Below, piece by piece: positions 41,194 to 52,797 of a DNA stretch of 64,000 nt (positions are counted from its first letter, which is position 1; each line of letters opens with the position of its first letter). The translations under genes and the position numbers were made by a program. This DNA is from Escherichia coli (GTDB lineage: Bacteria; Pseudomonadota; Gammaproteobacteria; Enterobacterales; Enterobacteriaceae), in assembly GCF_003334815.1 (NCBI RefSeq), contig NZ_QOWO01000001.1; one strand, written 5' to 3'. The notes beneath the pieces were generated by a model, which saw nothing but the letters and a program-made list of their open reading frames with translations, did not search any database and was not told the origin of the DNA.

Positions 41194-42159
41194 ATGCGCA
41201 TCGGACAATATCAGCTCAGAAATCGCCTGATCGCAGCGCCCATGGCTGGCATTACAGACAGACCTTTTCGGACGTTGTGCTACGAGATGGGAGCCGGATT
41301 GACAGTATCCGAGATGATGTCTTCTAACCCACAGGTTTGGGAAAGCGACAAATCTCGTTTACGGATGGTGCACATTGATGAACCCGGTATTCGCACCGTG
41401 CAAATTGCTGGTAGCGATCCGAAAGAAATGGCAGATGCAGCACGTATTAACGTGGAAAGCGGTGCCCAGATTATTGATATCAATATGGGTTGCCCGGCTA
41501 AAAAAGTGAATCGCAAGCTCGCAGGTTCAGCCCTCTTGCAGTACCCGGATGTCGTTAAATCGATCCTTACCGAGGTCGTCAATGCAGTGGACGTTCCTGT
41601 TACCCTGAAGATTCGCACCGGCTGGGCACCGGAACACCGTAACTGCGAAGAGATTGCCCAACTGGCTGAAGACTGTGGCATTCAGGCTCTGACCATTCAT
41701 GGCCGTACACGCGCCTGTTTGTTCAATGGAGAAGCTGAGTACGACAGTATTCGGGCAGTTAAGCAGAAAGTTTCCATTCCGGTTATCGCGAATGGCGACA
41801 TTACTGACCCGCTTAAAGCCAGAGCTGTGCTCGACTATACAGGGGCGGATGCCCTGATGATAGGCCGCGCAGCTCAGGGAAGACCCTGGATCTTTCGGGA
41901 AATCCAGCATTATCTGGACACTGGGGAGTTGCTGCCCCCGCTGCCTTTGGCAGAGGTTAAGCGCTTGCTTTGCGCGCACGTTCGGGAACTGCATGACTTT
42001 TATGGTCCGGCAAAAGGGTACCGAATTGCACGTAAACACGTTTCCTGGTATCTCCAGGAACACGCTCCAAATGACCAGTTTCGGCGCACATTCAACGCCA
42101 TTGAGGATGCCAGCGAACAGCTGGAGGCGTTGGAGGCATACTTCGAAAATTTTGCGTAA
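41194..42159 (+). CDS. dusB: tRNA-dihydrouridine synthase B
   Basis: 321-aa [25 protein letters not shown]. Confidence 0.95.
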
Positions 42160-42184: not shown

Positions 42185-42481
42185 ATGTTCGAACAACGCG
42201 TAAATTCTGACGTACTGACCGTTTCTACCGTTAACTCTCAGGATCAGGTAACCCAAAAACCCCTGCGTGACTCGGTTAAACAGGCACTGAAGAACTATTT
42301 TGCTCAACTGAATGGTCAGGATGTGAATGACCTCTATGAGCTGGTACTGGCTGAAGTAGAACAGCCCCTGTTGGACATGGTGATGCAATACACCCGTGGT
42401 AACCAGACCCGTGCTGCGCTGATGATGGGCATCAACCGTGGTACGCTGCGTAAAAAATTGAAAAAATACGGCATGAACTAA
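42185..42481 (+). CDS. fis: nucleoid-associated DNA-binding protein Fis
   Basis: 98-aa [24 protein letters not shown]...[13 protein letters not shown]. Confidence 0.98.
42465..42481. repeat. left direct repeat (attL core) aatacggcatgaactaa, formed by the last codons and stop of fis
   Basis: 17-bp sequence identical to 51811..51827; a degenerate third copy aacggcatgaaattaa lies at 42503..42518. Confidence 0.75.
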
Positions 42482-42506
42482 AGTCAAGCTGTAACGGCAT
42501 GAAATT

Positions 42507-42537
42507 AAAGGGGCTATTTCAGCCCCTTTACTTTTTG
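42507..42537. terminator. bidirectional rho-independent terminator supplied by the element (ends fis read-through and the cargo operon)
   Basis: aaaggggctatttcagcccctttactttttg. Confidence 0.7.
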
Positions 42538-42558
42538 TTGCAACCGTACTGACAACCC

Positions 42559-50407: not shown

Positions 50408-51643
50408 TTAATTATCTGATTTTAAAAGGTTTATTTTTTCTAAATATTTTATCCATTTGTCCAAGGCTAACCGTTTTTCCGGGATGTACTGGCTACGGTT
50501 GTACACCGCCATCACTCCTGGCATTGAGTGGCCCAGCAACTGTTCAACCACATGCGGGGCTATCCCCAAGTTATTTAGACTGGTGGCAAAAGTGCGGCGC
50601 AGGTCATGCAACGTCCACGGCGTTGAATGCTCTAATCGTCTGTATAAGATACGCCCCCACTGGCTGACAGCTTCGGGTTTCTTCATTTCACCAAGCAGCA
50701 TTCCGCTATCAAGATGATTTTGGCGTAGCTGTAAAATAAATGGCTGTATAGATTCAGGCACGGGTCTGATGATTTTCTCCCCACCCTTGCTATGTTCTCG
50801 CGGAACTGTCCAAATCCATTCTTTCACGTTCCATTCCGACCATGTCGAAAGACGAATTTCTTGTGTTCTTGCACCAAACACTATTAGCAATTTTAAAAGC
50901 GCGGTGTAGTAAGGTAGAAACGCATATTCGCTTTTTAGCGCATTCCAAAGGCCACTAAGTTCTTCAGAAGTTAAAACACGATCACGTTTTGCCTGCTTTC
51001 TTCCAACATCAGTAACTTTGATATCCTCCAGCGCATCACTGTAAACATCGTGCAGCCTGCGGTTGTGAATCAACGCCTGCTTGCAGTTACCTAATATGTA
51101 GCCGCTTGCTACCGGCGCGACTTTTTTGATTCTGCTAAATGTCTCCATCCATCTTGCTTTAGAGCACTGTTCAAGTGGCAATTCGCCGATGAAAGGATAA
51201 ATATGTCTTTCGAATTGGCGTCTATGCCTTTCAAAGTTGACCCGGTTTTCCGCCGCGTACTCATTAATCCAGCGTTCCAATGCTTCCCTGATAGTGACAG
51301 GTTTCATGGTTTTTGCTGACTCTTGGTCAAACTGGTCTTTAGGATCTAGATTATGAGCAAGCCACCGTTTGCATTGGTCGCGTTTCACCCTCGCCTCAGC
51401 AAGAGATAAGGCAGGATACTTGCCCAGCACTAGCGTCAAAGTATTGGCGCTTTTATGCTTATTCTTATAACGGAACAACCATTGGATGTTATTGGCCGGT
51501 CTCTTCTCGCCATCAAGGATTTTGCGCCTTGATGGTGTAACGCGAACAGAAAGGCTGCCACCGTCAGCAACATCAAAAGGTTTTTCGATGACTTTGCGGG
51601 TTAACGCACGCAATTGAACATCTGAGAGTTTATTTTCGGCCAT
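50408..51643 (-). CDS. tyrosine recombinase/integrase, P4-type (N-terminal DUF4102-like arm-binding domain)
   Basis: ORF 50408..51715 begins with TTG; ATG at 51643 gives ~411 aa; N-terminal KLSD...DGGSL...LGKYPALSLAEARVKRD; C-terminal catalytic signature LHDLRRTFAT...LLGHS...AVYNRSQY. Confidence 0.88.
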   Translation of the reverse strand: MAENKLSDVQLRALTRKVIEKPFDVADGGSLSVRVTPSRRKILDGEKRPANNIQWLFRYKNKHKSANTLTLVLGKYPALSLAEARVKRDQCKRWLAHNLDPKDQFDQESAKTMKPVTIREALERWINEYAAENRVNFERHRRQFERHIYPFIGELPLEQCSKARWMETFSRIKKVAPVASGYILGNCKQALIHNRRLHDVYSDALEDIKVTDVGRKQAKRDRVLTSEELSGLWNALKSEYAFLPYYTALLKLLIVFGARTQEIRLSTWSEWNVKEWIWTVPREHSKGGEKIIRPVPESIQPFILQLRQNHLDSGMLLGEMKKPEAVSQWGRILYRRLEHSTPWTLHDLRRTFATSLNNLGIAPHVVEQLLGHSMPGVMAVYNRSQYIPEKRLALDKWIKYLEKINLLKSDN

Positions 51644-51810
51644 AGAGTTAATGACAACCTTTTTGACAACTGTATGCAGGGAGTAACTGATAACTGATGA
51701 TACAATGCGAGCCAATAAAAAATAAATATCTCTTTCCGCATCAATTATTTATGATGAATACAAATTATCTAGAGTGATAATAAATTACGTATAATGACTC
51801 TGTATTTTAC

Positions 51811-51827
51811 AATACGGCATGAACTAA
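51811..51827. repeat. right direct repeat (attR core) aatacggcatgaactaa
   Basis: perfect 17-bp copy of the fis 3' end, located about 170 bp beyond the integrase start. Confidence 0.75.
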
Positions 51828-51852
51828 TTCAGGTTAGCTAAATGCTTGATTA

Positions 51853-51890
51853 AAAAGGCGCTACTCGGCATGGGGAAGCGCCTTTTTTAT
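51853..51890 (+). terminator. rho-independent terminator, probably the ancestral fis terminator displaced by the insertion
   Basis: aaaaaggcgctactcggcatggggaagcgccttttttat immediately right of attR and upstream of yhdJ. Confidence 0.65.
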
Positions 51891-51912: not shown

Positions 51913-52797
51913 ATGAGAACAGGATGTGAACCGACCCGGTTTGGTAATGAAGCTAAGACCATTATTCACGGTGATGCGCTTGCCGAACTTAAAAAGATCC
52001 CCGCCGAAAGTGTCGATCTGATCTTTGCCGACCCACCATATAACATCGGTAAAAATTTTGATGGTCTGATCGAAGCCTGGAAAGAAGATCTGTTTATCGA
52101 CTGGCTGTTTGAAGTGATTGCAGAGTGCCACCGCGTTCTGAAAAAGCAGGGCAGCATGTACATCATGAACAGTACGGAAAACATGCCCTTTATCGATCTC
52201 CAGTGCCGCAAGCTTTTTACCATCAAAAGTCGCATCGTCTGGTCATATGACAGTTCTGGAGTGCAGGCGAAAAAACACTACGGCTCCATGTACGAACCCA
52301 TCCTGATGATGGTGAAAGACGCAAAGAACTACACATTCAACGGTGATGCTATTCTGGTAGAAGCCAAAACCGGATCGCAGCGCGCGTTGATCGATTATCG
52401 CAAAAATCCTCCACAGCCTTACAATCATCAAAAAGTACCGGGTAACGTTTGGGATTTTCCGCGCGTGCGTTATTTGATGGATGAATATGAAAACCACCCG
52501 ACGCAAAAACCGGAAGCCTTACTGAAACGCATTATTCTCGCCTCTTCCAACCCAGGCGATATCGTTCTCGACCCGTTTGCTGGTAGCTTTACTACCGGTG
52601 CCGTAGCCATCGCCAGCGGACGAAAATTCATTGGTATTGAGATCAACAGCGAGTACATCAAAATGGGGCTTCGACGGCTGGATGTCGCGTCGCATTACTC
52701 TGCGGAAGAACTGGCGAAAGTGAAAAAAAGAAAGACCGGCAACCTGTCAAAACGAAGCCGGTTAAGCGAAGTTGACCCCGATCTCATTACAAAGTAA
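51913..52797 (+). CDS. yhdJ: DNA adenine (N6) methyltransferase YhdJ
   Basis: ORF 51907..52797; start at MRTGCEPTRFGNEAKT gives 294 aa; DPPY catalytic motif. Confidence 0.92.
   Translation: MRTGCEPTRFGNEAKTIIHGDALAELKKIPAESVDLIFADPPYNIGKNFDGLIEAWKEDLFIDWLFEVIAECHRVLKKQGSMYIMNSTENMPFIDLQCRKLFTIKSRIVWSYDSSGVQAKKHYGSMYEPILMMVKDAKNYTFNGDAILVEAKTGSQRALIDYRKNPPQPYNHQKVPGNVWDFPRVRYLMDEYENHPTQKPEALLKRIILASSNPGDIVLDPFAGSFTTGAVAIASGRKFIGIEINSEYIKMGLRRLDVASHYSAEELAKVKKRKTGNLSKRSRLSEVDPDLITK

Follow-up and report, generated by a model that had tools for sequence, protein, structure and literature searches.

Probable replacement of the dusB-fis terminator by a hairpin in the attachment site of an Escherichia coli phage-inducible chromosomal island

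Elements that integrate at the end of a gene commonly bring a replacement for the 3' end of their target, as phage 21 and e14 do at icd, and P4 and many islands at tRNA genes. For fis, phage-inducible chromosomal islands (PICIs) and an att site that spans the terminator were described by Tommasini, Mageeney and Williams (2023, NAR Genomics & Bioinformatics; PMC10111431), who also restated the principle that an attachment site replaces the 3' part of its target gene. A total of 3,565 'fis GIs' were reported in that study, all of which were judged to be PICIs, and excision was confirmed experimentally for one Klebsiella member. The same authors noted that fis is followed by a rho-independent terminator and that the identity block of the att site can extend into it (PMC10111431). 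The terminators that flank dusB-fis have elsewhere been treated as the natural terminators of the operon (Gerganova et al. 2015, PMC4751926).

The window analysed here is a stretch of 64,000 nucleotides of E. coli DNA (contig NZ_QOWO01000001.1) in which an island lies between fis and yhdJ. The coordinates of its features are collected in Table 1. An exact direct repeat of 17 bp, AATACGGCATGAACTAA, bounds the island with a spacing of 9,346 bp, and the DNA to the right of attR aligns base for base with the empty fis-yhdJ junction of K-12 (BW25113). Together, this repeat and the match of the attR flank to unoccupied K-12 DNA define the insertion. The Fis protein is unaltered by the insertion, since carriers and K-12 have the accession WP_000462905.1 in common. 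The attL block includes the consensus published for fis PICIs, TACGGCATGAACTAA (PMC10111431), and the island has the features by which that family is recognised, namely a position at the 3' terminus of fis and a flanking identity block with TACGGCATGAACT(AA).

The att core recurs a third time, in partial form, as ACGGCATGAAATTAA at 42494-42508, where 13 of 15 positions match the core. This copy follows attL by 26 bp, stands immediately 5' of the hairpin described below and overlaps the TTGAAtTAAAA motif conserved in fis 3' UTRs. The copy is missing from a variant of the island, L003, and may be read as a relic, a secondary integrase site or a coincidence.

The terminator that now lies beyond attR had been taken as the probable ancestral fis terminator in a preliminary description of this DNA, which placed it at 51853..51890 and had the element displacing it by 9.3 kb. 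Both points were confirmed. The terminator is identical to that of the empty K-12 site, its coordinates agree within 1-3 nt, and the exact shift, given by the spacing of the repeats, is 9,346 bp. Terminators were compared by means of a d'Aubenton-Carafa-type score, d, computed with ViennaRNA energies; it is uncalibrated and only its relative values are meaningful. On this relative scale the native terminator (d = 18.5) stands well above the island hairpin (d = 4.7). A known sRNA in the displaced 3' UTR was also considered. The Rfam family STnc40 matched the native terminator at 25.6 bits against a gathering threshold of 45, with the similarity limited to the stem and U-tract, and this candidate was rejected as a sub-threshold match to the terminator part only. 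The main text of Sittka 2008 contains no mention connecting STnc40 with fis, and a literature search returned no paper with 'fis.3UTR' and nothing on a fis 3'-UTR RNA.

Table 1. Features of the fis locus and of the integrated island, in coordinates of the window.
Feature	Position	Strand	Basis or remark
dusB, first gene of the dusB-fis operon	41194..42159	+	ORF list; RefSeq annotation of a 99.8% identical locus (L001)
fis	42185..42481	+	ORF list; RefSeq annotation of a 99.8% identical locus (L001)
attL identity block, AATACGGCATGAACTAA	42465..42481	.	Last five fis codons and stop (TAA); exact direct repeat
Island-derived spacer of the new fis 3' UTR	42482..42505	+	Aligns with the conserved TTGAAtTAAAA motif of fis 3' UTRs
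Island-supplied, intrinsic-terminator-like hairpin and T-rich tail, TTTACTTTTTGTTG	42506..42540	+	
Tail tape-measure gene, 757 aa	42559..44832	-	phrog_28 at 2.7e-129
Island genes without assigned function (68, 149, 54, 104, 294, 74 aa)	44854..47962	-	
Conserved island ORFs, 149 aa and 294 aa	45070-45519 and 46087-46971	-	
Conserved island ORF, 109 aa	47406-47735	+	Only + strand gene in the island
VapE-type primase/helicase (replication zone)	47972..49660	-	phrog_2249 DNA primase at 1.2e-82; RefSeq 'VapE domain-containing protein'
AlpA-family regulator/excisionase	49934..50113	-	Pfam Phage_AlpA PF05930 at 3.9e-13
Tyrosine integrase with arm-DNA-binding domain	50408..51643	-	Pfam PF00589 and PF13356
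attR identity block	51811..51827	.	Second copy of the exact direct repeat
Native (ancestral) fis terminator, A5-GGCGC...GCGCC-T6	51852..51888	+	Identical to the empty K-12 site
yhdJ, usual downstream neighbour of fis	51913..52797	+	ORF list; RefSeq annotation

On its site and gene content, segment 42482-51810 belongs to the fis PICIs, the family of phage-inducible chromosomal islands that integrate at fis. Read from attR to attL, the genes are arranged in integration, replication and late zones, the layout of Gram-negative PICIs. The tyrosine integrase stands by attR with the AlpA-family regulator in the same zone, and the replication zone is followed by a late zone with a captured late gene and no full set of tail genes. 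The integrase shares 53-56% of its residues, over the full length, with the integrases of three other islands found at fis. The leftward gene block of the island ends with a tail tape-measure gene, convergent with fis, whose product has 58-60% identity, again over the full length, to the tape-measure proteins of myophages of about 41 kb, namely vB_EcoM_ECOO78, ECO1230-10, ep3 and Salmonella PT1. This was the sole structural gene recognised in the island by PHROG, NCBIfam, Pfam and phage tblastn checks, and it may represent a captured late gene that exploits or interferes with helper tail assembly. A literature search found no paper tying PICIs to a satellite-borne tape-measure gene of such a kind. 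No PHROG match was obtained for the seven small ORFs (68, 149, 54, 104, 294, 74 and 109 aa), no NCBIfam match for those of 149, 294 and 109 aa, and no Pfam match for that of 294 aa; the ORFs of 149 and 294 aa were also without a tblastn match among 50,697 phage genomes.

A relative of the island that lacks an integrase has been deposited as a plasmid, pM121-3 (L008, NZ_CP083588.1; 8,933 bp, circular). It carries the VapE primase, the tape-measure gene and the same small genes without assigned function, and its host strain, ECNB21-M121, has an unoccupied chromosomal fis site. The molecule may represent an episomal form or a satellite lineage that persists as a plasmid and, as a circle without an integrase, gives the one indirect hint at possible induction, excision and packaging that depend on a helper phage.

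The preliminary description had also reported a hairpin and T-run of the element, at 42507..42537, right after the rebuilt fis stop codon. Such a structure was found at 42506-42540, within 1-3 nt of that placement. Its core, GGGGCT-ATTTC-AGCCCC at 42510-42526, has a GC stem (42510-42515 paired with 42521-42526) that begins 29 nt past the fis stop. The extended stem, TAAAGGGGCT/AGCCCCTTTA at 42506-42530, comprises 10 bp with 5 GC pairs around a loop of 5 nt (ATTTC), and is followed by the tail CTTTTTGTTG at 42531-42540. A/T-rich runs flank the stem on either side, and the T-run is broken by AC (TTTACTTTTT). The 77-nt intergenic stretch that contains the hairpin has a predicted fold of -26.5 kcal/mol (z = -4.49), equalled by none of 200 shuffles. 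On the fis strand the score of d = 4.7 was attained by 3 of 240 random 77-nt segments of the island (1.25%) and by 0 of 240 shuffles. A simple scan for terminator patterns returned 21 sites against 15.1 +/- 4.3 in shuffles, which is not significant; the case for a terminator therefore rests on fold stability, position and conservation.

Position was assessed across fis islands with 30 distinct attL sequences from the supplementary attL alignment of PMC10111431, drawn from Klebsiella, Escherichia, Morganella, Pectobacterium, Providencia, Hafnia and other genera, to which the window and L003 were added. In all 32 sequences the GC stem of a predicted terminator begins +28 to +32 past the fis stop and d exceeds 0, with the stem starting at +29 in both the window and L003; the window hairpin has the lowest score of the set. 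The terminator region is island-derived (lower case in the authors' file) in most of the 30 published sequences, and the supply of a terminator is therefore the rule for fis islands (PMC10111431). When 16 fis 3' regions were aligned with MAFFT, the window hairpin shared columns with the native terminator, and a conserved TTGA-A/T-rich motif was evident just 5' of the hairpin. The new 3' UTR of fis measures about 55-58 nt against 61 nt for the native one; its stem is again preceded by an A-rich run and followed by a T-rich one, at the same spacing.

This equivalence is one of position and architecture. Alignment of the whole island 3' UTR with the native one gave p about 0.015, a value inflated by the terminator layout common to both, and alignment of the spacers only was not significant (p about 0.28). 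Beyond the shared layout, sequence homology could accordingly not be demonstrated. An origin of the hairpin as the native fis terminator of another species likewise gained no support from the genomes and viral contigs scanned. A scan of 100,044 species genomes for the end of fis followed within 10-40 nt by AAAGGGGC yielded two matches, one a chance match in a Cohnella repeat and the other in Photobacterium ganghwense, where a different, longer hairpin is present; a scan of viral contigs returned the L003-type island only. Neither search gave a supporting match. In the P. ganghwense locus (L012, 820-930) fis ends in TGA, and AAAGGGGCTTTCC...GACAGCCCCTTT at +26 is followed by direct repeats ATGTACCCCG and then by the start of an ORF. 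This arrangement points to a further island linked to fis, or to the arm sites of an integrase, in a member of the Vibrionaceae.

Pairing is retained wherever the stem varies within the island family. The window has GGGGCT/AGCCCC, L009 has GGGGCT/AGTCCC with a G:U pair (G-C to G-U), and L003 has GGGGCC/GGCCCC, a double change (T-A to C-G). From the 16 aligned fis 3' regions RNAalifold recovered a stem of 9 pairs in the same columns, with double changes at 4 of them. Window-type left ends themselves vary little (37 identical copies and 11 with one mismatch), so most of the covariation comes from other island types and host genera. The hairpin thus combines a GC-rich stem-loop and T-rich tract with a stability beyond chance and with compensatory changes, the attributes of an intrinsic terminator, and the conclusion that the 3' end of dusB-fis has been rebuilt with a hairpin and 3' UTR derived from the island is supported by these comparisons.

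Covariation also bears on the possibility that the inverted repeat is an inert, attB-like leftover, or a feature of recombination at the level of DNA such as a binding or bending site, and that fis transcription is stopped elsewhere, for example by Rho in the untranslated antisense of the tape-measure gene. The hairpin does lie in the attachment-site arm beside the core, with the 13/15 partial core copy directly 5' of its stem, and its tail CTTTTTGTTGCAAC resembles CTTTTTCTTGCAAC from the attL of a capsid-encoding PICI, which suggests a conserved arm sequence. However, an inert relic would not retain compensatory changes. The stems vary widely across islands and genera while pairing, GC content, T-run and offset are kept, which indicates that selection acts on termination in the RNA, and not on a sequence bound by protein. 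A role confined to the DNA, or none at all, was for these reasons considered very improbable.

The linkage of the hairpin to other parts of the island was apparent from the L003 variant. Islands of the window type and the L003 type are about 93% identical over island positions 101-7756 and differ in the integrase (56% amino acid identity) and in the first 100 nt or so, a stretch that contains the hairpin and the last few tape-measure codons. In the window, the swapped module corresponds to 42482-42581 and 50114-51810. Because the last tape-measure codons differ along with the integrase, the attachment-site arm overlaps the 3' end of the tape-measure gene, and because both divergent parts are contiguous in the excised circle, the hairpin belongs to the integrase-att module.

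An alternative on which these data bear is that the hairpin serves the island itself, by terminating its leftward late genes (the tape-measure operon), and follows fis only incidentally. The tape-measure stop codon (42559) is 28 nt from the hairpin with no terminator between them, A/T-rich runs lie on either side of the stem, and the L003 hairpin scores well on both strands (d = 22.2 on the fis strand and 17.4 on the minus strand). The window hairpin, however, is borderline on the tape-measure strand (d = -0.2), where its tail, TTTAATTTCATG, is poorer in T, and it is exchanged with the integrase, not with the tape-measure gene. In pM121-3, which has neither integrase nor fis, the tape-measure gene is followed by a different terminator, with T8 and d = 21.7 on the tape-measure strand and nothing usable on the other. 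The offset of +28 to +32 is moreover that of all other fis islands, including capsid-encoding PICIs that have a separate terminator for their last gene; in L005 and L006 this extra terminator-like hairpin lies between the last gene and the copy of the fis terminator. A hairpin that serves the late genes and stands behind fis by accident is therefore improbable.

Among complete E. coli genomes the fis-yhdJ junction was intact in 5309 of 5426, leaving up to 117 without it. The window-type left end (81 nt) was present in 48 of the 5426 and the L003 variant, which has the same late genes and a different integrase, in 17; the other occupied genomes that were sampled contain capsid-encoding PICIs at the fis site. 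Since tandems occur, these 48 + 17 left ends exceed the 64 genomes in which such an end is directly adjacent to fis. One tandem is visible in the supplement of PMC10111431, where the attR of a 16-kb fis PICI (entry fis.Eco9562.16.fis) adjoins a window-type left end with the same hairpin, so that a capsid-encoding PICI and a tape-measure island stand in series at fis. The window hairpin sequence is missing from the attL file of that study and occurs once in its attR file, as this tandem neighbour.

The capsid-encoding PICIs also provide information on the crossover. In some of those found in E. coli (L006; Eco9562, Eco9106 and other attL entries) the fis stop codon is changed from TAA to TGA, so that the stop codon itself comes from the island and recombination by this integrase family must take place 5' of the second base of that codon. 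The fis stop codon in the window, and all DNA 3' of it, would by analogy come from the island as well. Capsid-encoding PICIs (L006 3516-3620; L005; Eco9562 and Eco9106) were in addition seen to bring a Klebsiella-like 3' UTR, which in combination with the TGA stop hints at a recent transfer between genera.

The reading that we favour, to which a probability of roughly four in five was assigned, is that the hairpin is a replacement fis terminator carried in the attachment site of a fis PICI and keeps fis a closed unit. The tyrosine integrase would recombine within the last codons of fis, and the attachment site of the island would carry a substitute for everything 3' of the crossover, that is, a stop codon, a 3' UTR about as long as the native one, and a hairpin that is rich in GC and followed by a T-rich tail. 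Transcription of dusB-fis would then be predicted to stop at about 42533-42540, on the island hairpin, and not at the native terminator behind attR. We infer from the sequence both that RNA polymerase terminates at the island hairpin and how efficiently it does so. In addition to closing the fis transcription unit, the hairpin would prevent transcription that starts at the very strong fis promoter from running antisense into the convergent late genes. With the tape-measure stop so near and no second terminator in between, leftward transcription from the tape-measure gene probably ends at this hairpin too, which would in that case be used from both sides.

The level of Fis, a master nucleoid protein, follows the growth rate, and the promoter of fis is very strong early in exponential growth. 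An element that rewrites the 3' end of fis could in principle shift global regulation in about 2% of E. coli strains. It might be supposed that a deliberately weakened or altered island terminator shifts Fis dosage in carriers, or that growth-phase-dependent fis read-through, antisense to the late genes, couples silencing of the satellite to the growth of the host. The window hairpin does have the lowest of the 32 scores and an interrupted T-run, and the late genes are convergent with fis. Nevertheless, the hairpin of L003, from the same family of islands, is strong (d = 22.2), so weakness is no trait of the family; the length and layout of the 3' UTR are conserved; and differences between heuristic scores are uncalibrated. 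Such a design is very improbable. The preliminary description had raised an altered stability or expression of the dusB-fis mRNA in carriers, and the corresponding effect, by which a weaker terminator and a different 3' UTR would alter fis mRNA stability or Fis dosage, or growth-phase read-through would tie satellite silencing to growth, is likewise highly doubtful.

Termination at the window hairpin may nonetheless be leaky, given the interrupted T-run and the lowest of the 32 scores, and somewhat more fis transcription may run on antisense to the tape-measure gene. The conserved spacing and 3'-UTR length suggest that fis expression is preserved and not altered, and the regularity with which fis islands keep a terminator at the native position points the same way. 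This regularity indicates strong selection on a satellite both to leave fis closed and to guard itself from the fis promoter. The locus is a tidy example of target-gene repair that reaches past the coding sequence into the 3' UTR, and one that opens no new question.

In comparison with known systems, the island resembles elements at icd and tRNA genes in that its attachment site duplicates the part of the target 3' of the crossover and the target stays functional. It differs from them in duplicating just five codons and the stop exactly, with most of what is replaced being non-coding, namely the 3' UTR and terminator. Bidirectional intrinsic terminators between convergent genes are familiar from SEnd-seq and Term-seq studies of E. 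coli. The window hairpin is like these in being a single GC-rich hairpin with A-rich and T-rich flanks between the convergent fis and tape-measure genes, and unlike them in that it is only borderline on the tape-measure strand (d = -0.2).

Capsid-encoding PICIs, with gene sets of the cf-PICI type (L004/L005, L006 and L007), share with the window island the integration site, the integrase family (53-54% identity) and the offset of the attL terminator. In contrast to the window island they are 13-17 kb in length and have capsid, portal, protease and terminase genes, and their attL carries a near-identical copy of a fis terminator.

The island agrees closely with the fis PICIs as published (PMC10111431). 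As in these, the 3' terminus of fis is the integration site and the identity block contains TACGGCATGAACTAA, the integrase and AlpA genes are found by attR and are followed by a replication zone and a late zone with a captured late gene, and yhdJ is located across the island from fis. Three differences were observed. The identity block of the window stops at the stop codon (17 bp), the hairpin is diverged and shorter (GGGGCT...AGCCCC) and not a near copy of GGCGC...GCGCC, and the late zone consists of a tape-measure gene instead of capsid or packaging genes. The rebuilt fis terminator is a general and already published property of fis PICIs and is not peculiar to this locus; what is slightly new is a subtype that combines an identity block of only 17 bp, a diverged, shorter hairpin and a tape-measure late zone.
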